Assembly: GCA_036785375.1 (NCBI GenBank)
Contig: JAWMAR010000094.1
Span: forward strand, 6,696,001 to 6,760,000
Direction: 5' to 3'
Source: Leucoraja ocellata
Taxonomy: Eukaryota
Length of the DNA: 64,000 nt
The notes under the pieces are model-generated. The model did not search any database, was not told where the DNA came from, and was given only the letters and a program-made list of their open reading frames with translations. The number at the start of each line of letters is the position of its first letter. The first letter of the stretch is position 1. Shown piece after piece: positions 3,088-64,000 of the stretch. Made by a program: the position numbers and the translations under genes.

Positions 3088-4115
3088 ATCAGCCATAATT
3101 GTCAATGTGAAGGCCTCTTTAGATGGAGCTACTCCTGAATTTGTTTTTTTTGGACCTGGTGGAGCTGGAAAGCCAGAGGGCAGAGTCTATAGAGGAAGCT
3201 CTATTAAACTGTTTGGACACTGCAGGCTTTAGTGAAGAGTGGCTTCAAAACAACTGGATCTCATTTGTTTCTGATGGAGTCAGTGTTATGTTAGGCAAAA
3301 GCTCTGGTGTGGCAACCAGGCTGACTACAAGGTACCCTAACCTCTTCACATGACACTGTATGGACCACCGTCTAGAACTGGCTGTAAATGATGCTGTGGA
3401 TGAGGTTCAGGCAGTCAACCACTTCAAAGTTTTCATGGACAAACTCCACAATCTCTACAGTCAGTCCAATAAAAATTCACGGGAACTTATGGAAGCAGCA
3501 CAAGAAGTGGGCTCACAAGTCCTGAAGATTGGCAGAGTTTTAAACACCCGATGGGTTGCCAGCAGTTTCTGTTCTGTAAAGGCTGTGTGGAGGTCATACG
3601 AAGCACTTAACAGACACTTTGAGAATGCTGCAGGAGACCAAACAAGAAACGGCAAAGAGAGACAAACCTACAGAGGCCTGGCACGTCATATGCAAAGCAA
3701 GGAATTTCTTTGTGACCTTGGACTCATGTATGATGCACTATCGGAACTTTCAAACCTGTCCCAGCAATTACAGGCCCATTCAATCACACTTTTAAGAGCA
3801 GAACAGCTGCTGAAGCGCACCATCCGAGTGCTGGCATCATTTAAAGATTCTCCAGGAGAGAAATTGGAGGAAGCATTGAAAGCACAGGCTTTGGGACAGT
3901 TTGGATCAGTGTCCCTGGAGTCAAATGCTAAGCTCATGCCGATCAATACAAAGCAGTTCCTACAAAGTCTGATCAACAACATGGAGAAGCGGCTCTCATT
4001 TAAGGATGAAATTCGTCATGATCTCAGAATTCTGGATTCAAGCACCTGGCCATCAACACCTGGCATACGGCACGGTGAGTCACAGGTAAAACCACTGTGC
4101 AGGCGATTCAATCTT

Positions 4116-4878
4116 AACCATATAACCATATAACAATTACAGCACAGAAACAGGCCATCTCAGCCCTACAAGTCCGTGCCAAACAATTTTTTTCCCCCTT
4201 AGTCCTACCTGCCTGCACTCATACCATAACCCTCCATTCCCTTCTCATCCATATGCCTATCCAATTTATTTTTAAATGATACCAATGAACCTGCCACCAC
4301 CACTTCCACTGGAAGTTCATTCCACACCGCTACCACTCTCTGAGTAAAGAAGTTCCCCCTCATATTACCCCTAAACTTCTGTCCCTTAATTCTGAAGTCA
4401 TGTCCTCTTGTTTGAATCTTCCCTGTTCTCAAAGGGAAAAGCTTGTCCACATCAACTCTGTCTATCCGTCTCATCATTTTAAAGACCTCTATCAGGTCCC
4501 CCCTTAACCTTCTGCGCTCCAGAGAATAAAGACCTAACTTATTCTCTGTACTCTCTCTATTTTGTTGACATCCTTCCTATAATTGGGCGACCAAAATTGT
4601 ACACCATACTCCAGATTTGGTCTCACCAATGCCTTGTACAATTTTAACATTACATCCCAGCTTCTATACTCAATGCTCTGATTTATAAAGGCTAGCATAC
4701 CAAAAGCTTTCTTTACCACCCTATCTATATGAGATTCCACCTTCAAGGAACTATGCACGGTTATACCCTGATCCCTCTGTTCAACTGTATTCTTCAATTC
4801 CATACCATTTACCATGTACGTCCTATTTTGATTTGTCCTGCCAAGGTGGAGCACCTCACATTTATCAGCATTAAACTT
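4116..4878 (-). mobile_element. CR1 LINE 3' fragment (family with (TTATATGG)n tail)
   Basis: FNADKCEVLHLG...YKALVRPNLEYGVQFWSP...FFTQRVVAVWNELP; tail ccatataa repeats. Confidence 0.9.
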
Positions 4879-6166
4879 TGTCAAGAACAAGCTGTCAATG
4901 GAATGAGAGATTTCATCGAGCACCCAGAGAGTGAACCTGAATGCCTCAAACCACTCATCCACTGCATGCAGACCATCCCTTGCAGCACTGCAGAGTGTGA
5001 AAGGGACTTCAGTCTGATGAATATTGTGTACACAGACCAAAGATCTAGAATGTTGTTGTCTAGTGTCAGCAATTTGATGATGATCAGCATCAATGGGCCC
5101 CCTGTAAGCCTTTTTGAGCCAAGCAAATATGTATCAACATGGTCACGAAGCCATTGCTCTGCCACGCAAGCAAGAAGGCAGAGCACACCTCAGATGCCTG
5201 AGTACAAGCAAATTTGGAAAGTTTTGTAAACTAGCAGGCTACTACATTTAAAGTGAAAAACAATTGTTGACAAAATCCCTTTTAGTGGAATACAAACACT
5301 TTTCTATACCTGCTACAGTAGCAAGTATGGAAAAGTGTTTGTATTCCACTAAATATCCCTCATGTAACTGTGTATTCCCCTTTGTTTGTTACTTTTTTAC
5401 AATGAAGGGATTGTGGTGTTTGTTTTATTTTACGGGTCATGCGCCCTCCGCTGGTCGTTTTTGCGGATGTACTGTTTTTCTTCTCTGTTAAACACTGAAC
5501 ACATGTTATTTGCATAGGACTTACTGTGATTGAAAACGTGTATTTTGTGATGCTGTGTGATTGCTGTATTAAGTATGAGTGTGAGACGTCTTAGAACAGT
5601 TGCTGATATGTTTTATTTATTTTAATTTATTATTTAAGCATTTTTGTATGGGAAACATAATTCTAAAGAACATGTTTTTATTTTGTATTTTTGCATTTAT
5701 TGTTTCTTAGATAGGGTATTTTATTTTATCGAGTTGTAATTGTTTCTGACAAATGACTAACTCTGTTTTTTCTTGTCTCAAAACTCTAAACAGAGCATGC
5801 AGCAGCAGCAGCAATAAATGTCCTGTGCAAAAGACTCAAGTATCCCATCGTCTCCTTAGCACATTAGTACTGAGGCCAGGCCGGTTACATATACAGTAGT
5901 ACAGTGTTTATATAGCCAACAGTTACTTATTTATTGATGCTTTATAGTTTATTTGATGCTAGTGCCTAATGGTGATTTTAATTTGACTGTTTATTGTCCT
6001 AGAAACTGATGACAATATCGAGTGTTGAATAATCTCAATTACTTATGGTGGTTGTAGGCTACTGTATGTGACAGTGAGTGTGGCGGTGTTTATAGGACGG
6101 GTGTGGAAGAGGCTAGGAGGGAATCATCACAGTATACCCACTACAAAAAACTAGACTACACCATTG

Positions 6167-6409: not shown

Positions 6410-6705
6410 TGTCTCCCTGTGTGTGTGTGTATCTCCGTGTGTGTGTGTCTGTTTCCCTGTGTGTGTGTGTGTCTCNNNNNNNNNNNNNNNNNNNNNNNNN
6501 NNNNNNNNNNNNNNNNNNNNNNNNNNNNNNNNNNNNNNNNNNNNNNNNNNNNNNNNNNNNNNNNNNNNNNNNNNNNNNNNNNNNNNNNNNNNNNNNNNNN
6601 NNNNNNNNNNNNNNNNNNNNNNNNNNNNNNNNNNNNNNNNGTGTGTGTGTGTTTGTCTCCCTGTGTGTGAATGTGTCTTCCTTTGTGTATGTGTCTCCCT
6701 GTGCA
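6167..6705. repeat. Compound (GT)n microsatellite spanning an assembly gap
   Basis: (gt)n tracts interspersed with tctccct; N-run 6476-6640. Confidence 0.95.
6476..6640. other. Assembly gap (N-run)
   Basis: 165 N. Confidence 1.
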
Positions 6706-11712: not shown

Positions 11713-12201
11713 ATCCCTGTGAATAGTTAGAGACAGTGATTTGGATCTGGAAGCGACCAATACAAAGTAAAACTGAACGATTCAGACGTCTTTTCATTTA
11801 CACAATTGACTTTATTGTATTAATTTTAATATATTAATGTTTAAAATCCATGCATTGAAGGAAGAATATTTTACAGCCCATCTGTAGTCCGTAACCCCCA
11901 ACCCTAAACCTAACCCTAACCGGGTGTCACTCGCAGGACAGTATACGCCAGCGTGTGACCGGGTGCACGACATGATGAGACACCCTAATGTCGCCCCTGG
12001 ATTTTGAACCTTTTGAACGTCACTACATGCGTCACCATGCGTCACCACCCGACCACGACGCCACAACCTCTTTTCAGGCTGTTGCCGAAAATATCGCCCA
12101 AGTGGGAAAGGCCCTTAAATCCCTCATCCCACGGGAGGGGCAGAGAAACTGCAAAGCCACCTGCCTGCGTTTGGTCCATGTCCCTACAAACCTGATCTAT
12201 C

Positions 12202-13266
12202 TGTGAGATGCAAATGTGAGTGCTCACAATCACGATGCCAGAGACAAAGTCGTGGAAACAAGAAACACCTTTATTTATGAGTCTGCAGCCCCCGGGTATC
12301 TCTCTAACCGAGACACACCGAGACCATGAAACCATCCTCTACTTATACAGCACCATTTGGCTGAATCAGCCTCCCCTTCTGGCTCCTTCCAATCAGAGCA
12401 CTGAGGTTCACATTCTCACCAGAACGTCCCGTAACGCCCTTCAACGTCCAGGTTACCTCCCACATCATACATCGCATGTGTATTTAAATGAGACATTTTT
12501 TTTTTTTTTTTTTTAAGAGCCGTTGTTTCTGAAGAACCAGTTCCTAAACAAGAGCCACTGCCCCAAGCAAACACCTGCCCAGCAGAAGTCAACGCAAGTG
12601 AAGACTGGCTTCCGGCACAAACCTTCCTAATATACAGTCCTTGGAAGCCTTCAATTACCTTTGGCCGGTACACTCGGTTAGTGTCTCCATGACCAAGCTT
12701 ATCATTGTCGCCCCCTCCAAATGACCAAACCGTTCGTCCATCCTGAGATACAGCAAGAGTGTGGGAGCTGCCACAAGCTACTTGGCCAACACTGCTTATA
12801 TCTTTAACAAGAGATGGTAGATTACGACTACGGCTGTCACTATGTCCAAGTCTACCAAAGTCTCCTTCTCCCCAGGTATAAAGTTCTCCATCGGATGTCA
12901 CTGATGCACTGTGCCTATATCCTGCTGACACACAGATCACAATCTTTCCAAGTAAAGGGTCTTGAATCAATTTGGGATTTAAATGAGACATTTTGTCATG
13001 TTGGGAGTTGTCGTAATATTCATGTATCTTATTAAGCATGCGCAGTACAGAGTAGTTCCTGCCCTTTCCCCCAGTTCTCGTAATGTTTCTGCTGGGCTGC
13101 TTATCTTCTAATTCTCAACCTTGAAATGTCACTACCTGTTCTTCTGCTGTTACTATCCAGACAAGCGCGGTGGGGTGTTCGTGCTGAAGCTCACTATTAT
13201 CCTACCTCAGCTATTTCTCAGGATTTCTAGTCTAAATCAACTATCCCTATTAACCCTTTCCTCACA
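12202..13266 (-). mobile_element. Solo LTR (ERV1/Gypsy-type) carrying a HERC1 retrocopy
   Basis: Termini TGTGAG...CTCACA. 4-bp TSD TATC at 12198-12201 and 13267-13270. Minus-strand AATAAA (12270-12275), TATA-like motif (~12343-12348) and CCAAT box (~12389). Confidence 0.8.
12500..12976 (-). pseudogene. HERC1: Processed (retrotransposed) fragment of HERC1 E3 ligase mRNA, RCC1-like domain 1
   Basis: Translation PKLIQ..LGKIVICVSAGYRHSASVTSDGELYTWGEGDFGRLGH...VWSFGGGDN.KLGHGDTNRVYRPKVIE..QG..IRKVCAGSQSSLALTS.GQVFAWG...SSETTAL matches recalled HERC1 RLD1. Poly(A) appears as T19 at 12496-12514. TSD atttaaatgagacatttt at 12482-12499 and 12977-12994. Confidence 0.88.
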
Positions 13267-13416
13267 TATCCATGTACCTGTCTCTGTCCCTGTCTTCCTA
13301 TCTGTCTGTCTCGCTGTCTCTGCATCCATCTCTGTCTCTGCCTCTGCTCTTTCTGTCTCTCTCTGTCTCCGTAACTCTGTCTCTCGCTTACCAGTTCTCC
13401 CCCACATTTTCATCAG

Positions 13417-14085
13417 AAACCCACCTCTGACATTTGGGCACTGAAGCTCCCCCTAGTGCTCCAGTGTAGTGCCAAGTTACAGCCATGTTGCTGAAAGGGT
13501 AGTTGTGATACAGCATGGTGTTCCTGAAGTCCCACACCAGAAGAGCTCCCCACTATTTGCACTCTCCTTGACCTCGTCCTTCCCATACCGGCAAGTTCAG
13601 CTGAGGCTGAGCGAGGCTTCAGTCGGCTGAAACAGCTGAAGACCACCATCAGATGTTCCCTCCAGGATGACCAGGTAACAGACCAGCTCCTCATCATGCA
13701 GCATGCCAGTAACATCAAGGACTTTGATCCCCGGCCAGCCATCAGCTTGTGGCATGCAGGAGGGATGAGGGCAAGGGGGCCTGACACGGGTGAAGACCCA
13801 GCTGCAGCATCTGCCTCCGGACCTCACCCTGACAGTGACAAGTCTGATGAGGAGGATGCTCTGCTTGGGAGCGACTCAGATGACAATTAAAGTGACTTGC
13901 ATGTAGTTGAACAGCTCTGCCTTTTCTTTGCTTTTCAGGAGATGGTTTAAATGTCAACCAGAAAAATTACACATTTTCACAAATATAATGTTTCTGTTCA
14001 TTTAAAGTTGATATCCCCCCCTAAAATAAAAATAACCACCAGCCATTTGTATTGCCTTCTGGGCAATCTCACTTGCCAAGTTCCA
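13417..14085 (+). mobile_element. hAT (ZNF862-like) transposase C-terminal remnant
   Basis: Frame reads PEELPTICTLLDLVLPIPASSAEAERGFSRLKQLKTTIRCSL...DFDPRPAISLW (hAT dimerization domain). A possible matching left end lies at ~10760-10860. Confidence 0.75.
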
Positions 14086-16419: not shown

Positions 16420-16700
16420 TCATAGTCATAAAGTGATACAGTGTGGAAACAGGGCCTTTCGGCTCAACTTGCCAACACCGACCAACATGTGCCAGCTACA
16501 CTAATCCCACTTGCCTGCGCTTAGTCCATATCCCTTCAAACCTGAACTATCTATGTACCTGTCTAACGGTTTCTTAAACGTTGCGATAGTCCCAGCCTCA
16601 AATTCCTCCTCTGGCAACTTGTTCCATACACCCACCACCCTTTGTGTGAAATGGTAACCCCTAAGATTCCTATCACATCTTTTCATCTTCACCTTGAACT
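16420..16700 (-). mobile_element. CR1 3' fragment
   Basis: HFTQRVVGVWNKLPEE...FKKPLDRY. Confidence 0.75.
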
Positions 16701-18185
16701 GGTAGGGGGCGCCGGAGAAGGGAAATGGCTGCCCTGCCGACAGTCTGTTCGATATTTCATCCTTTTTGTTATTTTTAGCGTTTGTTTAGAAACATAGAAA
16801 ATAGGTGCAGGAGTAGGCCATTCGGCCCTTTGAGCCTGCACCGTCATTCAATATGATCATGGCTGATCATCCAACTCAGTATCCTGTACCTGCCTTCGCT
16901 CCATACCCCCTGATCCCTTTAGCCACAAGGGCCACATCTAACTCCCTCTTAAATATAGCCAATGAACTGGCCTCAACTACCTTCTGTGGCAGAGAAATCC
17001 AGAGATTCACCACTCTCTGTGTAAAAAAATGTTTTTCGCATCTCGGTCCTAAAAGATTTCCACCTTATCCTTAAGCTGTGACCCCTTGTTCTGGACTTCC
17101 CCAACATCTGGAACCATCTTCTTACATCTAGCCTGTCCAACTCCTTAAGAATTTTGTAAGTCTCTATAAGATCCGTCCTCAATCTTCTAAATTGTAGCAA
17201 GTACAAGCCGAGTCCATCCAGTCTTTCTTCGTATGAAAGTTTTGCAATCCCAGGAATCAGTCTGGTGAACCTTCTCTGTACTCCCTGTATGCCAAGAATG
17301 TCTTTCCTCAGATTAGGAGAGCAAAACTGTACGCAATACTCCAGGTGTGGTCTCTCCAAAGCCCTGTACAACTGCAGTAGAACCTACTTGCTCCTATACT
17401 CAAATCCTTTTTATATTAATGCTAACATACCATTCGCTTTCTTCACTGCCTGCTGCACCTGCACGCTTACTTTCAATGACTGGTGTACCATGACACCCAG
17501 GTCTCGTTGCATCTCCCCTTTTCATATCGGCCACTATTCAGATAACAGTCTACTTTCCTGTTCCTCCCACCAAAGTGGATAACCTCACATTTATCCACAT
17601 TATACTGCATCTGCCATGAATTTGCCCACTCACCCAACCTATCCAAGTCATCTTGCAGCCTCCTAGCACCCTCCTCACAGCTAACACTGCCCCCCAGCTT
17701 CATGTCATCCACAAACTCGGAAATGTTGCATTCAATTCCCTCGTCCAAATCATTAATCTATATTACTAAATCTCGGTTCTAGACCGCTTTTGGCCGTCTG
17801 TGCTGCGATTTCCGAGAGAACGCCGTCACCTAAGGCTGTAATTTTTGGCCACTTTGCTCACAGCCCCCCTCCGCCGCACGTGTGCCGAGGATGTTTCCCA
17901 TCGATGAAAAATGGCAGAGATATTAATGTGTTTACAAAATTCCCCATTCTCTCTGCTGCTCCTGCTGGAGGGAGGGAGAGGGACTATAAAACCAGGAAGT
18001 GGTGTGCCTCATTTAGTCTCTGCAACATGGAGGGCACTCAGAGCTCTGAATGACACTGAGCAAATGTCTTCACACCTGTGAGTAAGTACCCTTAATGTGG
18101 TTTGGAAATGAAAATATGGTTAGTTTGAAATAAAAAATAACTGCCTGCAAATGGTTGTTTCGGGGGTTTGGGTAAAAATGCACTC

Positions 18186-19838
18186 TCTTTCTCTCTCTCT
18201 ATCCCCACTCCTCCCTCTCCCTATCCCTCTCTCTTTCTATCTCTCTCCCCCACTGTCTCTCTCCCTTTCTCTCTCTCTCCCCTCCTCTCTCTCCCCACCT
18301 CTCTCCCCATCCCCAACCCACTCTCCTCTCCCCCTCACCTCTCCCCCCTCTCCTCTTCTCCTCCCCCTCTCCTCTCCTCTTCCCCCCTCTACTCCCCTCT
18401 CCCCCCCCTCTCCTCTCCTCTCCCTCCCTCGCCTCCCCTCTCCCCCACTCTCCGCCCCTCTCCCCCCTTCTCCTCTCCCCCCCTCCTCTCCTCTCTCCCC
18501 TCTCCTCTCCCCTCTCCTCTCCCCCCCCTCTCCTCTCCCCCCATCTCCTCTTCCCCCTCCTCTCCCCGCTCTCCTCTCCGCGCTCTCCTCTCCCCCCTCT
18601 CCTCTCCCCCCCTCTCCTCGCGCCCCCCCCCCTCCTCCCCACCTCACCATTTCCTCCCTCCCCCCCCTCTCCCCCTCCTCTCCCCCCTCTACTCTCCTTC
18701 CGTCTCCTCTCCCCTCCCCTCTCTCTCTCTCCCCTCTTTTTCTCCCCCTCCTCCCCTCCAACCCCTCCCCCACCATCCCTCCCCTAAATCCCCCTCCCCT
18801 CCACACACCACCCACTACCCTCCACCCTCCCTGCTCCCCACCTCTCCCCCTCCCCTCAGCTCACCCCCCTCTCAACACATACTCTCTCTCCCCCTCTGTC
18901 CTCCCCCTTTCTCCTCCCCCCCTCTCCCCCCTCTCCTCTACCCCCTCTCCTCCCTCCCCTCCTCTCCTCCCCTCTCCACTCCCCCCTTCCTCCCCCTCTC
19001 CCCCCTCACTCCTCTCTCCTCCCCTCTCTCCTCCCCCCTCCCCCTCTCTCCCCTCCTCCCATCCATCCCCTCCCCCTCTCCTTTCCCCGCCCCTCTCCCC
19101 TCCCCCCTCTCCTCCCCCCCCTCTCCTGCCCCCCCTCTCCTCTCCCCCCTCTCCTCTCCCCCTTCTCGTCTCCCCCTCTCCCCTCTCCCCTCCTCTCTCC
19201 CCCCCATCCTTTCCCCCCTTTCCTCTCCCTCCTCTTCCCCCTTTCCTCTCCCCCCTCTCCCCCTCCCCCTCACCTCTCTCTCCCTCCTTTTCCCCCCCTC
19301 CTCCTCTCCATCCCCTCCCCACCGCCCCTCCCCTAAACCCCCCTCCCCTCCACACCCCCTACCCTCTTTCCTCCACTCCCCTCCCTGCTCCCCACCTCTC
19401 CTCCCTCTCTCCTCCAGCTCTACTCCCCCCTCCCCCTCTCCCCTCCCCCTCTCTCCTCCCCCCTCTCTCCCCTTCTACCTCTCTCCCGTCCTCCCCTCCA
19501 TCCCCTCCCCCACCCTCCCTACCTCCCCTAAACCCCCTCCCCTCCATACCCCCTACCCTCTACCCTCCACCCTCCCCCCTCCCTCCTCATCCCTGCTTCC
19601 CACCTCTCCCCTTCACCCCCCTCTCAGCACCCCCTCTCTCTCCCCCCCACTCTTACCCTCTCTCTCTCTCCCCTCCTCCCCCACCTTTCCCCCCTCACCC
19701 ACCCTTCCTCTTCTCCTCCTCTCCACCCCCTCTCCCTCTTTTCCCTCTCTCTGTGCCTCTCTCTCTCTCTCTCTGTCTCTGCCCCTTCTCTCTCTGCCCT
19801 CACTCTCTCCTCCTGCCCCCCCCCCCCCCCCCCCTCTA
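18186..19838. repeat. Polypyrimidine/polypurine (C/T-rich) low-complexity tract
   Basis: About 1.65 kb almost entirely C/T; recurring ccctaaaccccctcccctcc unit. Confidence 0.95.
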
Positions 19839-23767: not shown

Positions 23768-23967
23768 NNNNNNNNNNNNNNNNNNNNNNNNNNNNNNNNN
23801 NNNNNNNNNNNNNNNNNNNNNNNNNNNNNNNNNNNNNNNNNNNNNNNNNNNNNNNNNNNNNNNNNNNNNNNNNNNNNNNNNNNNNNNNNNNNNNNNNNNN
23901 NNNNNNNNNNNNNNNNNNNNNNNNNNNNNNNNNNNNNNNNNNNNNNNNNNNNNNNNNNNNNNNNNNN
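23768..23967. other. Assembly gap (200 N, probably a fixed-size scaffolding gap)
   Basis: Round-number N-run. Confidence 0.95.
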
Positions 23968-38270: not shown

Positions 38271-38309
38271 TGAGGCTTTGATGAATGTTTTTATTGTGTT
38301 TTGTTGAAG

Positions 38310-38669
38310 GTCTCCTGGCGATTCCAGTCCTGAATCAAACCCCAACGTCCGGACCCGTCTCCGCGGCACAGACCGCCCGCTTAGAGTGTCGGATGCAGAA
38401 TGGAAATGTTGCAAGTTACAATGTATTTTGGTATCGACAGCGTCCCGGGGAGAGTCCAAAGTGGTTGGTAACGTATGAAACCGATAATGATATATACCGT
38501 GGCAGTGGGATCACAGACCGGTTCCAGCCGTCCAGAGATACTTCCGCCAACAGCTACATCCTGACCATCGGTACCGTGGAGCCCCGCGACGCCGCCGTCT
38601 ACTACTGTGCAGTGTGGGAAAATAATGTGGGATACTTCTTCAGCCCTGGGACTATCCTGGAAATAAATA
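38310..38669 (+). CDS. Ig light chain germline-joined VJ exon (sigma-cart / type I, NS5-like)
   Basis: Acceptor ttgttgaag|g. Reads IPVLNQTP..LEC..FWYRQRPG..DRFQPSRDTSANSYILTI..DAAVYYC-AVWENNVGYF-FSPGTILEIN. Donor A|GTAAGT at 38670. No heptamer or nonamer between V and J. Confidence 0.95.
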
Positions 38670-39221
38670 GTAAGTGACTCCCTCGTTCTGTTCCCATGAA
38701 TCCCCTTGCAGTCGTTCTCATTCCCCGGCGCTCGGTGCATCCCCAGACCGGGAACGTCGGACTTGTATCTGCGCGCCGTAAAAACTTGCTCTGTCTCTAC
38801 TGGGCGCGGGAGGCCATTCTGCCCAATCGGGTCCGCTCCGTACGTCAGCGGTCGGGAGAGTATTCCCGCCAGCGGGGATTCCTGCATCGTTAACACAAGC
38901 CGCAGTTTGCGACAATCAAACGCGTTAATGTTGGGGAAACAAGGAAGACAATTTGCACGCATTCTGACGAAAGACATTGAGGAAAATACCGGGCAGCGGG
39001 TTGGGCGAGTCGGCTAGAGAGTGTAGCGGGAAAGGACGTGTTGGTGCGGGCTCGGGGTGAATCCGGGATGAACCGGTCGTTTCATCGTCTCTCCACCTCT
39101 CAATGGCTTGTGGATCCGCGCTGCGTCCCCCCGCTCCCCTTGCATCACCTGACAGGGAGTGTTGGATATCCGGAGGCCTCTCCGGTACCGGTACTTCCCG
39201 CCATAACTCCTTAAAGTGGTT

Positions 39222-39530: not shown

Positions 39531-39650
39531 GCTACATTCGCAAATTCACATTCAAGCGAATTCCAGAGCTGGGGTCAGTGTGAGGCGCTGCCGACGGTCT
39601 CCATCAACTAACAATGCCTCTCTTCTCTTCCGCCCCTCTCCTCCACACAG

Positions 39651-39979
39651 GTAGCGAGTCTCGGAAGCCCACGCTTCTCCTGCTCCCTCCGTCTCCGGAG
39701 GAAACTGGCACGGGCTCGGCCACACTCAGCTGCCTGGTGAGCGGCTTTAAGCCGGGCCTCGTGGCGCTGCGCTGGGCCGTGGACGGCGTGGAGACGGAGA
39801 GCGGGGTGACGACGGGCGCCGTGTCCCCGGACGCCGAGCAGACGTACAGGCTGAGCAGTTACCTGCGGGTCCCCGCCGCCGCATGGGGCAAGGGCACGAG
39901 CTATTCCTGCAGCGTAGCCCATAGCTCTCTGGGCTCGCCTCTCCGCCACACCGTCTCCTCATCATCTTGCGCGAACTGA
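39651..39979 (+). CDS. Ig light chain constant exon (sigma-cart / type I)
   Basis: Polypyrimidine tract + cacag| acceptor. Reads SESRKPTLLLLPPS..ATLSCLVSGFKPG..W..DG..YRLSSYLRVPAAAW..YSCSVAH..SCAN*: C1-set Cys pair plus subterminal Cys for the H-L bond. Spliced CDS is 741 nt (246 aa). Confidence 0.95.
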
Positions 39980-42464: not shown

Positions 42465-43860
42465 AAATCTTTTTATTTGAATTTCACAGCAATTTGCATA
42501 CATACAATGATAACAGACAGTGACAGTCAAGGCATAATTGTGCAACAGTATGTAAGTGAGCCTCAAAGCCCTTACCCTTACCCACCTTCAACCCACCCGA
42601 ATCAGGTCGGAACCAAACGGGGACAAACAACACTCACATACATACACATCCACACAAATATGGTAAGATAAACGAAACAAAAAGTACTAAAAAAAAATTT
42701 TTTTTAAATAAAAATAAAAATTTTAAAAAAGGGGTCACTAATAACAGTAAATAAGTAAATAATTAAATAAATACGTGTGGGGAGGGGGGGGGGGGGTTAA
42801 GGGGAAAGCAGCTGCAGTAGAGCAGAACTATGGTGGAGAGCACTCAGTCCTCTTCCGAGTCCAGGGACAAGTTGAGAGTGTTAACAAGTTCCAAGAAAGG
42901 GTTCCATGTATCTAGGAATGTCTTGGTAGAGCCTTTGAGAGGGAACCTAAGTTTTTCAAGCTTTAAATTGTAAAGCACCTCCTTAATCCAGCGGGCGTGT
43001 GTCGGGGGACAGGTAAGCCTCCAGTTAAGCAAGATCAGTCTCCGGGCTAACAAGGTTGTAAAAGCTAGGACCCGTTTCACCGCAACATAGAGGTTGGTGT
43101 TGGGAGGGGTACCGAAAATGGCTGACAGTGGGTTTGGAGGAATAGTCTGGCCGTAGGTTCTGCTTATCAAGTCGAAAGCACTCCTCCAAAAGGCTGCTAG
43201 CTTAGGGCAAGACCAGAACATATGGCTATGGTTGCAGGAGATTGATTACATCTGTTGCAGGTGTCCCTAACAGCGGGGTAAATTCTAGATAATCTTGCAT
43301 TTGTGTAGTGGACTTTGTGAAGGACTTTGCATTGGATTAGGCCATGACGGGCACATGTGGAGGAAGAATGGATCAAATCCAAGGCAGAGTCCCATTGCTG
43401 TTCTGTTAGTTTCGTTTTCAGCTCACCCTCCCACACAGCTTTTAATGAGGTATGAGGTTTCAATATAACCGACCCTAACAAGTTATACAAAACAGAGATG
43501 CATTTCTTCCGGTTGGGATCTAGAGCTAAGATGGTATCGGTCAGGGTCTCAGGGGGGCGATTTGGGAAATGGGGGGATGTCTTCTTCACAAAATCCCTAA
43601 TCTGGAAAAAACGAAAAAGGTGGGAGTTTGGGAGGCTATAGTTGGATGAGAGTTCCGCAAAAGACGAAGAGATGCCATCCTTGTATAGGTTTTTGATACA
43701 ACTGATACCGTTGCTATGCCAGGTTTTGAATGCGTGGTCTGTACTTGAAGGTTTAAAGATGTGGTTTTTAAGCAGTGGGGTCAAGATGGAAGGGCCTTGT
43801 AAACCGAAGTTTTTCCTGAGTTGACTCCATATCTTGAGCGAGGGGGACGCAATTGGGCCT
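42465..43860 (-). mobile_element. L1-clade (fish-type) LINE 3' portion
   Basis: CNRCNQ...HMFWSCPKL..FW (CCHC knuckle), LLARRLILLNW, LEKLRF...F..TW.PF; A-rich 3' end near 42470. Confidence 0.85.
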
Positions 43861-44979
43861 GCACCCCTCTTCTACTATAGCTGAGGCTCTCACCAGGGTC
43901 TCTTCTATACCCCGCAACTCTGCTCTCATTCCCCAACCCCCAACTCGTAACAAGGGCAGAGTACCCCTTGTCCTCATCACATACAACAAATAATTCTCCA
44001 ACTTTTTCACCACCTCCAACGGGATCCCACCACTGGCCACATCTTCCCATCTCCTCCCCTGTATGCTTTCCGCAGAGACCGCACCCTCCATAACTCCCTG
44101 GTTAATTTGTCCCTTCCCACCCAAACCACCCCCTCTCCTGGCACTTTCCCTTGCAACTGCAGGAAATGCTACACTTGTCGCTTTACCTCCCCCCTCGACT
44201 CCATTCAATGACACAGACAGTCTTTCTAGGTGCGGCAGAGGTTCACCAGCATCTCCTCCAACCTCATCTATTGCATCCGCTGCTTTAGGTGTCAGCTGCT
44301 CGACATCAGTGAGACCAAGCGTAGGCTTGGCGATCGCTTGGTCCAACACCTCCGCTCGGTTCGCAATAACCAACCTTATCTCCTGGTGGCTCAGCACTTC
44401 AACTCCCCCTCCCATTCCGAATCTGACCTTTCAGACCTGGGCCTCCTCCATGGCCAGAGTGAGGACCACCGTAAATTGGTGGAGCAGCACCTCATATTTC
44501 GCTTGGGCAGTTTACACCCCAGCGCTATGACCATTGACTTCTCCAATTTCAGATAGTCCCTGCTTTATCCTCCCCTTCTCAGCTCTCCCTCAGCCCACTG
44601 TCTCCGCCTCTTCATTTCGTCTTCCCGCTCCCCCACCCTAACATCAGTCTGAAGAAGGGACTCGACCCGAAACGTTGCCTATATCCTTCCTCCATAGATG
44701 CTGCCTCACCCGCTGAGTTTCTCCAGCATTTTTGTCTACCACCAGGTTGTGAATGGTCCTATTAAAGACAGGGCTTTATTTCATTAATACATGAGCATTT
44801 ATTGATCGTTTCATTAATTAGACACACTTGATGTGAGTTATAACCACCGACTCTCACAGATAATTCAATGAATGCCCACACAAAAGATCATGATGTGAAA
44901 TGGGTGTCTGAGGGGTTGGGTGAAGCCATTTCATTGGGGTTGATCATTGAGGAGAAGGTGAATTTCGAATTAAGTTGAT

Positions 44980-55535: not shown

Positions 55536-57129
55536 CAGTGGCTTGCAACAGTAATCATACCCCTTGAACTTTTCCACATTTTGTCACGTTACAACCACAA
55601 ATGTAAATGTATTTTATATGGATTTTATGTGATAGACCAACACAAAGTGGTGCATAATTGTGAAGTGGAAGGAAAATGATACATGGTTTTCCAATTTTTT
55701 TACAAATAAAAAACTGAAAAGTGTGGCGTGCAAAAGTATTCAGCCCCCGAGTCAATACCTTGTAGAACCACCTTTCGCTGCAATTACAGTTGCAAGTCTT
55801 TTGTGGTATGTCTCTACCGGCTTTGCACATCTAGAGACTGATATATTTGCCCATTCTTCTTTGCAAAATAGCTCAAGCTCAGTCAAATTGGATGGAGAGC
55901 ATCTGTGAACAGCAATTTTCAAGTCTTGCCAAAGATTCTCAATTGGATTTAGGTCTGAACTTTGACTGGGCCATTCTAACACATGAATATGCTTTGATCT
56001 AAACCATTCCATTGTAGCTCTGGCTGTATGTTTAGGGTCGTTGTCCTGCTGGAAGGTGAACCTCCACCCCAGTTTCAAATCTTTTGCAGGCTCTAACAGG
56101 TTTTCTTCCAAGATTGCCCTGTATTTGGCTCCATCCATCTTCCCATCAACTCTGACCAGCTTCCCTGTCCCTGCTGAAGGAAAGCATCCCCACAGCACGA
56201 TGCTGCCACCACCATATTTCACAATGGGGATGGTAATTTCAGGGTGATGTGCAGTGTTAGTTTTCCGCCACACATAGCGTTTTGCATTTAGGCCAAAAAC
56301 TTCAATTTTGGTCTTATCTGACCAGAACACCTTCCTCCACATGTTTGCTGTGTCCCCCACATGGCTTGTGGCAAACTACAAACGGGACTTCTTATGGCTT
56401 TCTTCTTGCCACTCTTCCATAAAGGCCCGATTTGTGGAGTGCACGACTAATAGTTGTCCTGTGGTCAGATTCTCCCACCTGAGCTGTGGATCTCTGCAGT
56501 TCCTCCAGAGTTACCATGCTTGGCTGCTTCTCTGATCAATGCTCTCCTTGCCCGGCCTGTCAGTTTAAGTGGACGGCCATGTCTTGGTAGGTTTGCAGTT
56601 GTGCCATACTCTTTCCATTTTCGGATGATGGATTGAACAGTGCTCCGTGAGATGTTCAAAGCTTGGGATATTTTTTTATAACTTAACCCTGCTTTAAACT
56701 TCTCCACAACTTTATCCCTGACCTGTCTGGTGTGTTCCTTGGGCTTTATGATGCTGTTTGTTCACTAATGTTCTCTAACAAACCTCTGAGGCCTTCACAG
56801 AACAGCTGTATTTATACTGAGATTAGATTACACACAAGTAGACTCTATTTACTAATTAGGTGACTTCTGAAGGCAATTGGTTGCACTGGATTTTATTTAG
56901 GGGTATCAGAGTAAAGGGGGCTGAATACTTTTGCACGCCACACTTTTCAGTTTTTTATTTGTAAACAAATTTGAAAACCATGTATCATTTCCCTTACACT
57001 TCACAATTATGCGCCACTTTGTGTTGGTCTATCACATGAAATCCGAATAAAATACATTTACGTTTGTGGTTGTAACATGACAAAATGTGGAAAAGTTCAA
57101 GGGGGTATGAATACTTTTGCAAGCCACTG
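55536..57129 (-). mobile_element. Tc1/mariner DD34E transposon, Passport-like IR/DR group, full length but defective
   Basis: About 210-bp TIRs starting CAGTGGCTTGCAA. Transposase ORF pieces 56465-56707 and 55752-56360 (WSD, QQDNDPKH, DLNPIENLW, AKGGSTRY). Start codon mutated and frameshifts present. Confidence 0.95.
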
Positions 57130-62181: not shown

Positions 62182-64000
62182 ATCTAGACGACTGCGATAT
62201 CAACTCAGTCGGCGCCGAGGTGATGTCCAGCGGCTCAACAGTAAATATGAAGCGGAAGCAACAAACTACCCTTAGCCATTTAAAAAAAAAACAAGCCTGC
62301 TGCTGCCTCGGACGACACTCCAGCAGTCACTAGGACGTTAGATGAAGAAGAGGGAACTACAGCGGAGCCTGATGCCAGCAGTGTATCGGGTAAGTGAAAG
62401 TCGTACACAAGTGAACTTTAGCAGATATTAGACTACTAGCTACTAGCTTATAAGAGATTTCCCAAAATGAATGAATACCACACATATATTCACTAAACGG
62501 CCTTGCTAGCTCAATCTTGTTTTAGTAAAGTAGTAAATAACATCGTTATTACACATTTTACTGTGAGACTGTGAGTGTGTGTGTGCTGAATATCTCCTTG
62601 TTCCTTCTAGATGATAACTCCTGGCCAGCCCTATGGACTGAGAGTCAGGCTAGGGAGTTTAAAAGCAGGCATTCTTGGTTAGAATGGAAGGACAGAAAGT
62701 TAGGTAAATATCAGCCAACTTGTAAAGCTGGTATAAACACATGAAGTCAACTTTATGCAAATGAGAGTATAGCTGGTTTATTTTCATCTTAAAGATACAT
62801 TAATTTCCTTTTATACAATTAAATTATAATGATATTGTCACAGTTCATTCAATTTTGAATAGATCCTTATCCAGTTCAGAAGGTGTTATTGCTAATATAG
62901 ATTCAAAAAAGACTACTTGTATGATGTTAATTAGTCATGTTTCTGTTTACTTCCAGGTTGTGCTATTTGCAACTCAACAAAATCTACTGGCGTCTTAACA
63001 GAGAAAAGAATTTCCAAATCTGAGGAGTGGGCGATGTTTAAGATCCAGTCATCAGGCTCAAGCAGACCAACAGCACTGGCCTCCTTGAGAAACAAGATCA
63101 GACAGCATGAGATGTCCAGGGCACACGAAATAGCTCAGGAGCTCACTGAAAAGGGTGGACAGGATTTACTTGGGAATCTTCTAAGAGCTGTGTCAGACAC
63201 TGTTAACTGAGACAAATGCTGTATTCAGAACAGCATATTATCTTGCCAAGATGAACCAACCTTTCTCTGACCATGACGATCTCATTGAGCTTCAGGAAAA
63301 AAACGGTGTCAACATGGGCACAAGTCTGCACTCAAGGTTCAGTTTAACAAAAATTGTGGAACACATAGCAAAAAAGATGCAGACAAAAATAGTTGACAGC
63401 ATTGTGTCATCTTCAAGCAAGCTGTCTGTTCTCATTGATGAGGCAACTTCTCTCAGCCATAAATCAGCCATGATTGTCAATGTGAAGGCCTCTTCCGATG
63501 GAGCTACTCCTGAATTTGTTTTTTTTGGACCTGGTGGAGCTGGAAAGCTAGAGGGCAGAGTCTATAGAGGAAGCTCTATTAAACTGTTTGGACACTGCAG
63601 GCTTTAGTGAAGAGTGGCTTCAAAACACCTGGATCTCATTTGTTTCTGATGGAGTCAGTGTTATGTTAGGCAAAAGCTCTGGTGTGGCAGCCAGGCTGAC
63701 TACAAGGTACCCTAACCTCTTCACATGACACTGTATGGACCACCGTCTAGAACTGGCTGTAAATGATGCTGTGGATGAGGTTCAGGCAGTCAACCACTTC
63801 AATGTTTTCATGGACAAACTCCACAATCTCTACAGTCAGTCCAATAAAAATTCACGGGAACTTATGGAAGCAGCACAAGAAGTGGGCTGACAAGTCCTGA
63901 AGATTGGCAGAGTTTTAAACACCCGATGGGTTGCCAGCAGTTTCCGTTCTGTAAAGGCTGTGTGGAGGTCGTACGAAGCACTTAACAGACACTTTGCGAA
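62182..64000 (+). mobile_element. hAT KIAA1586-like transposon, copy 2 (runs off the window end)
   Basis: Near-identical to 1249-2550 plus 3088-3625; lacks the Rex insertion; same introns. Confidence 0.92.

Follow-up and report, generated by a model that had tools for sequence, protein, structure and literature searches.

Our analysis of a 64,000-nucleotide (nt) stretch of Leucoraja ocellata DNA, here called the window, points to a young, intronless retrocopy of a HERC1-like transcript that had been cut within an exon and then tailed before an L1-clade reverse transcriptase copied it, a reading to which we assign a probability of about 0.55. The parts of this reading differ in strength: insertion by target-primed reverse transcription appears very likely, and a template that already carried its tail is, once target priming is granted, the somewhat better supported choice. 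The copy interrupts a solo long terminal repeat (LTR), and its components are listed in Table 1.

Table 1. Features of the retrocopy, of its surroundings and of a possible LINE relative in the window (position 1 is the first letter of the window).
Feature	Position	Strand	Basis
SINE-like tail of high copy number, interrupted by the LTR	12157..13283 (12157-12201, 13267 on; right end approximate)	+	87% match to 16507-16551
Solo LTR, 570 bp plus 495-bp insertion	12202..13266	-	TGTGAG...CTCACA ends; TATC duplication
Target-site duplication, tail side, 18 bp, ending TTTT on +	12482..12499	.	Exact repeat
A15 tail, nontemplated (A19 including the target's four A's)	12500..12514	-	Sequence and parent protein
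Intronless HERC1-like mRNA fragment, 462 nt	12515..12976	-	Sequence; 152/154 match to P0136; Pfam RCC1
Fifth exon, first 60 nt, cut past Thr-Ala-Leu	12515..12574	-	Parent protein; L001, L005
Fourth exon, nt 275-402, 128 bp	12575..12702	-	L004, L011; 129-nt contig 12573-12701 in X1 and X2, 0 differences
Third exon, nt 131-274, 144 bp	12703..12846	-	L004; X1 contig 12703-12847, 145 nt, 0 differences
Second exon, nt 34-130, 97 bp	12847..12943	-	L004 introns; X1 contig starting at nt 130
First exon copied, 3′ part (insert nt 1-33); 5′ truncation point 12976	12944..12976	-	L004 intron
Target-site duplication, 5′ side	12977..12994	.	Exact repeat; GT next on +
Chimeric open frame, 191 codons, chance product	12416..12991	-	ATG in duplicated target, then insert, Lys run and LTR
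5′-truncated L1/Tx1-like copy (lead only)	about 42470-43863	-	ORF2 end; zf-RVT look-alike, score 0.98

Translation of the minus strand of the insert gave 154 open codons with zero stops. Pfam recognized RCC1_2 in three stretches of it and RCC1 in two, and a search of the PDB by sequence returned RCC1-family structures only. The insert thus corresponds to approximately three repeats and covers part of the first RCC1-like domain, its closest relatives being the first RCC1-like domains of HERC1-type ligases. Among proteins of up to 2000 residues, the search retrieved a bamboo-shark HERC1-type protein (93%), while the search among long proteins retrieved a HERC1-type E3 ligase of 4798 amino acids from the little skate, Leucoraja erinacea (P0136). 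The insert matches residues 495 to 648 of P0136, only about 3% of that protein, with 152 of 154 residues identical. Both changes replace Gly by Asp, namely, QGPLL>QDPLL at codon 6 and GDNGK>GDNDK at codon 92, and both glycines are invariant in 15 of 15 relatives among the rows listed. An earlier note, made from the sequence alone, had read substitutions in GDNDK and GHSDS as signs of neutral decay; the former is a real change, whereas GHSDS is native to P0136 and must be struck from the list, and the change at codon 6 had escaped that note. The pair (12960 and 12702) implies G>A at the second position of two GGY codons, as judged from the protein for these two changes. An origin of the two G>A changes through AID/APOBEC was considered and rejected, given n = 2 and a parent known here as protein.

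In a tree of 24 rows with a midpoint root, the insert is sister to P0136 (support of 100/97) and falls inside a cartilaginous-fish HERC1-like set (98/93). The mammal-type HERC1 set, with bat, bird, and teleost members, is separate (100/99), and the insert lies outside it. By this tree, the parent belongs to a HERC1-like lineage found in cartilaginous and ray-finned fishes, which stands apart from the mammal-type HERC1 branch. The parentage proposed in the earlier note, HERC1, therefore holds at the level of the family, to which the best match belongs, but not for mammal-type HERC1. In this lineage, the two fish groups have a second full-length HERC1-type ligase, distinct from the mammal-type branch and annotated plainly as HERC1 (P0136, P0062, and P0156). 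Carp appears, from the tree, to hold both HERC1-type branches, and a literature search for this second fish lineage did not find a description of it.

The exon structure of the parent was approached through orthologous loci from a metagenome scan, which yielded 28 loci, 6 of which were examined. One of them, L004, which by similarity is a fragment of a HERC1-like gene from a fish, contains GT..AG introns at positions equivalent to insert nt 33|34, 130|131, 274|275, and 402|403, and a further locus, L011, has the introns at 274|275 and 402|403 in common with it. By this comparison, the insert joins five exons and four introns are absent. Both L004 and L011 end before the fifth exon, and its continuity is known from the more distant genes L001 and L005 rather than from vertebrate loci; in these, the exon beyond nt 402 continues across the cut site. 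An intron at the cut site would begin with GT, not A.

Four of 24 listed public sequencing runs were examined over 11750-13700 (X1, X2, X22, and X23; 16 of 4122 pieces listed), with 12486-12522 masked and with a hole in X2 at 12740-12805. X1 and X2 are public runs that likely consist of genomic DNA, their types being guesses ("DNA?" and "?", respectively). A 145-nt contig of X1 covers insert nt 130-274, that is, an exon plus the acceptor G, and a 129-nt contig found in both X1 and X2 covers nt 276-404, that is, an exon minus its changed first base, plus GT; the G92D change at 12702 is the first base of the fourth exon. These lengths are exactly those expected of sequence that a parent with introns would have in common with a spliced copy. 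The spliced form is thus likely to exist as DNA in both organisms, because the parent alone would yield contigs that enter introns. Contig ends in X1 and X2 support three of the four junctions predicted from L004, while the first (nt 33|34) left no trace in the X1 and X2 read tables and rests on L004. Among the 16 of 4122 pieces listed, no contig spanned an insertion junction or an empty LTR site.

At the other end of the copied fragment, a run of 19 T's on the plus strand (12496-12514) represents the poly(A) of the minus-strand insert. Since the first four T's of this run belong to the target duplication, 15 A's are extra. In P0136, Thr-Ala-Leu is followed by Arg-Pro-Arg. All 8 cartilaginous-fish proteins have Arg as the residue after the cut, and each of the 15 rows listed has either Arg or Lys there. 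Because an Arg codon follows the cut, the parent can have supplied at most one A of the tail, which leaves 14 to 15 untemplated A's. Downstream of the cut, P0136 has a further 4150 codons. A search for 19 types of poly(A)-signal hexamer across the whole insert found none, and the use of a canonical or variant signal was rejected on this ground. Intronic polyadenylation was likewise rejected, with zero intron bases ahead of the tail, as was internal priming on an A-rich stretch, with no more than one A from the parent. The fold predicted for the insert's final 120 nt was unexceptional (z = +1.12; 182 of 200 shuffles at least as stable), so that the cut site appears structurally ordinary, and Rfam gave no matches at the gathering threshold in the whole window.

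The two copies of the target-site duplication agree at 18 of 18 positions with a spacing of 495. At a fixed place, this 18-mer would recur by chance with a probability of 4e-11, and the 14-mer without TTTT with one of 7e-9. Since the plus-strand bases after the 5′-side duplication are GT, the nick would have been TTTT/G; its T-run agrees with the L1 site TTTT/A, but the base after the nick is G rather than A. Among 28 A-runs of at least 7 on both strands of the window, the insert's run alone exceeds 10 and is the sole one with a long repeat inside 1 kb. Three others have a recurring 10-17-mer, but 1.7 to 7.2 kb off. Collectively, these results bear out much of what the earlier note had claimed: an intronless segment of about 460 bp (462 nt here, four introns absent) with roughly three RCC1 repeats, a poly(A) fused in mid-coding sequence after Thr-Ala-Leu without AATAAA, a perfect duplication ending in TTTT (here, an exact 18 bp), and a position inside an LTR. 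L1-type target-primed reverse transcription, also suggested there, is supported by the tail, the duplication, and the T-rich nick.

The LTR that received the insert is flanked by a 4-bp duplication, TATC, at 12198-12201 and 13267-13270. On its minus strand, it carries TATAA (12343-12347) and AATAAA (12270-12275), and because both are downstream of the insert, the insert itself would lie in U3, upstream of the likely promoter. Family-wide minus-strand RNA reads of the single-cell run X23 at 12212-12409 agree with this orientation. The LTR itself splits an older repeat whose label as a SINE is our reading of the sequence: contigs of X1 and X2 connect 12174-12193 to 13264-13267, and RNA reads run beyond 12201 into right-flank letters. 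The stretch 12157-13283 can accordingly be described as a nest of three levels, composed of a SINE-like tail, a low-copy 570-bp solo LTR, and the retrocopy, and the order of arrival is SINE, LTR, and then, likely, the retrocopy.

A single difference in 275 compared bases separates the insert from parent DNA (95% interval, 0.01-2%; the assembly may mask a few), and the copy is therefore young. The LTR differs from its contig at 6 of 250 positions, and the comparison with the insert (1/275) is weak (p = 0.06). In X1, contigs on the insert reach a depth of 60-70, whereas many other single pieces stand at about 30. This suggests the parent plus one copy, contig depth being a rough guide that gives no copy number. 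By the same rough guide, the depth of 153 for the LTR contig suggests that most LTR copies are without the insert.

We propose that a spliced HERC1-like transcript would have ended 60 nt into an exon, either because it was cleaved and polyadenylated without a signal or because an endonuclease cut it during decay and the fragment was then adenylated. RNA decay intermediates are marked by adenylation, and coding regions can undergo polyadenylation without a signal. A LINE endonuclease may then have nicked the plus strand past TTTT in the resident solo LTR, whereupon the TTTT-3′OH end would have base-paired with the tail and primed reverse transcription. Copying would have halted at 462 nt, an ordinary 5′ truncation; cleavage of the second strand 18 bp off would have created the duplication, and the two G>A changes would have followed later. 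The tail and the duplication are hallmarks of L1 retrocopies, whose target-site duplications are described as peaking near 15 bp (PMC2831318). L2-type elements, by comparison, are reported to require their own 3′ end and to yield duplications of 1-9 bp (PMC4476161). A distinction between relaxed and stringent LINEs is drawn in a review (PMC3747384). The main LINEs described for the elephant shark are L2 and CR1 (PMC5381603). Adenylated decay substrates are covered for snRNA, and tailed U1 copies have been proposed to result from direct capture of already adenylated RNAs, with template switching argued to be largely confined to U6 (PMC4476161).

A candidate for a related element in the window is the 5′-truncated L1/Tx1-like copy of Table 1, which has a zinc-knuckle motif, a 3′ UTR, AATAAA, and a short A run. 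Its duplication is imperfect (9-10 bp), its target lacks TTTT, and a 10-base palindrome stands between tail and target. The repeat that hosts it is presumably Penelope-like.

Three points count against a template tailed beforehand: the absence of a poly(A) signal, an RNA end that went unseen, and a negative human search. As regards the second, no RNA ending at the cut site was seen in X22 and X23, of which 6% and 1%, respectively, were read with 12486-12522 masked, and no spots with many molecule ends were listed in the runs. As regards the third, oligoadenylated truncated 5S and U2 retrocopies were sought in human, and none was found (PMC5322556).

The strongest competitor shares the target priming and differs in the template. 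Reverse transcription would have begun on the poly(A) of a LINE and, some 15 bases on, jumped to the untailed broken end of a HERC1-like mRNA, or the two RNAs would have been ligated. Such an early switch or ligation yields an identical final sequence and requires no poly(A) signal, of which the insert has none; it has been proposed for 3 of 25 tailed noncoding RNA (ncRNA) retrocopies (PMC2912911) and figures among the two models put forward for snRNA copies with tails, although, as noted above, switching is reported as largely U6 specific (PMC4476161). Human mRNA/L1 chimeras are also known (n = 17), but they mostly begin at the transcript start and mostly retain long L1 sequence (10.1101/2025.02.02.635956). 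We prefer the pre-tailed template because zero LINE bases lie between fragment and tail and because the human chimeras mostly hold long L1 sequence; the early switch is a possible explanation that we hold only tentatively. The earlier note had named both an adenylated fragment and a switch from an L1 poly(A) as sources of an abnormal template. Both indeed remain the leading options, and one insertion cannot separate them. A start from the tail of the full-length HERC1-like mRNA, followed by a jump of >12 kb or by internal deletion of a longer retrocopy, would have the merit of a normal polyadenylated mRNA as its template, but it must leave zero bases of 3′ UTR, and a jump would find at most one A of microhomology at its landing point in the parent. 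We therefore judge it unlikely.

Even less probable, in our estimation, is capture by an LTR element through a double template switch in the particle, with TTTT pairing with poly(A) and an 18-nt jump back. The insert does lie inside an LTR in the same orientation with both ends cut, and LTR-mediated copies, which accounted for five of seven young zebrafish retrocopies, are often 3′ truncated (PMC5131818). Such copies are nevertheless described there as being without poly(A) or duplications and as replacing part of the internal frames of the element, whereas the present LTR is interrupted and the interruption is flanked by a duplication. The contig depths given above, a rough guide by which most LTR copies likely lack the insert, and the weak excess of differences in the LTR also speak against capture. 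Duplication at the DNA level, in which one exon was copied together with a genomic A-tract, or chimeric assembly with cDNA from contamination, draws some encouragement from the lack of a junction-spanning contig among the listed pieces and from run types that are guesses. The earlier note had set out a single parental exon followed by an A-tract as the result that would speak for duplication; we found five exons and a parent that continues with Arg-Pro-Arg. The four missing introns, the contig ends in two separate runs, which indicate that a spliced form exists alongside the parent gene, and a perfect 18-bp duplication, which is atypical of assembly products, render this explanation very improbable.

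The copy itself is probably dead, as judged from its sequence. It contributes to a 191-codon frame that could be taken for a working retrogene making a three-blade RCC1 fragment: the frame is open throughout, the length of the insertion is divisible by 3, an A occupies position -3 relative to the ATG, and a few minus-strand RNA reads of X23 fall on the insert (up to about 5-fold depth at 12542-12673). These reads, however, are indistinguishable from reads of the parent, either source being able to account for them, and the bulk RNA run X22 has zero depth on the insert and is uninformative for expression; the listing of runs shows no recorded RNA holder here. Moreover, the TATA of the LTR is downstream of the frame. 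We consider the copy probably dead because both changes strike invariant glycines and because youth by itself accounts for the open frame; a functional product is hardly to be expected.

Among known systems, the closest are the processed pseudogenes made by L1. As described in PMC2831318, they share with the insert the lack of introns, the poly(A), the duplication, the T-rich nick, 5′ truncation, and short copying of a very long mRNA, and a duplication of about 5-30 bp, introns removed, and a 3′ poly(A) are all present here. They end at the 3′ UTR, whereas the insert breaks off within the coding sequence, 4150 codons short of the stop, and not at the mRNA's own polyadenylation site; it also lies in a cartilaginous fish. 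Because it ends at codon 648 of 4798 without a signal hexamer, we regard it as a variant rather than a standard processed pseudogene. Tailed snRNA and ncRNA pseudogenes (PMC4476161 and PMC2912911) resemble it in the tailing of a normally nonpolyadenylated RNA end, in the duplication, in the L1-like site, and in the two models for their origin; they derive, as described, from mammalian small noncoding RNAs, while the insert derives from a spliced coding mRNA cut within an exon. Tailless retropseudogenes (PMC5322556) are likewise copies of 3′-truncated RNAs with target duplications, but they are described as lacking a tail and as primed by complementarity at an internal site, in contrast to the 14-15 untemplated A's found here. 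LTR-mediated retrocopies (PMC5131818) share the partial mRNA, both cut ends, and LTR-element flanks; they are described as internal replacements driven by microsimilarity with neither poly(A) nor duplication, unlike this interrupted solo LTR with tail and duplication.

One survey found retrocopies in each of 579 vertebrate assemblies, with lower counts outside mammals (PMC13320880), and according to a review they usually keep the 3′ UTR (PMC5470649). The screen of PMC2831318 excluded, by design, hits without a 3′ UTR, and retrocopies of the present kind would escape standard screens in which a 3′ UTR is required. Neither this locus nor tailed mid-coding mRNA retrocopies as a class appeared in the part of the literature that we searched. 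What we describe is a single unusual event produced by known machinery, a clean and very young case of a retrocopy tailed in mid-coding sequence, and it is of interest mainly if it represents a class. The insert suggests poly(A)-based mobilization of a host mRNA in a group where L2 and CR1 have been described, in the elephant shark, as the main LINEs (PMC5381603). It is conceivable, though doubtful, that skates hold an overlooked class of retrocopies in which germline mRNAs are cut in coding exons, receive a tail in the absence of a signal, and are taken up by a LINE that, like mammalian L1, recognizes poly(A) alone and nicks at T-runs. Many such copies would matter as a record of the places at which germline mRNAs are cleaved and tailed; if the class is real, the 3′ ends of its members would map these sites in vivo. 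It would also imply relaxed L1-type trans-mobilization in cartilaginous fishes.

Elsewhere in the window, an immunoglobulin light-chain cluster comprises a V exon at 38285-38674 (+), to which J is already fused in frame, and, about 1 kb further along, a C exon at 39584-39976 (+). Pfam assigns V-set and C1-set domains to these exons, and the arrangement fits the germline-joined clusters described for the little skate (PMC2192082). Pieces of hAT-type transposase lie at 13528-13890 (+), with a Pfam hAT dimerization domain, and, as recognized by eye, at 3354-5226 (+) and 63185-63604 (+); a Tc1-like transposase fragment at 55755-56375 (-) was also recognized by eye. Gaps of N's occupy 6476-6640 (165 bases) and 23768-23967 (200 bases), and a low-complexity C/T tract of 1.7 kb extends over about 18160-19836. 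A moderately repeated element opens with a short run of telomere-like CCCTAA units (11900-11921).
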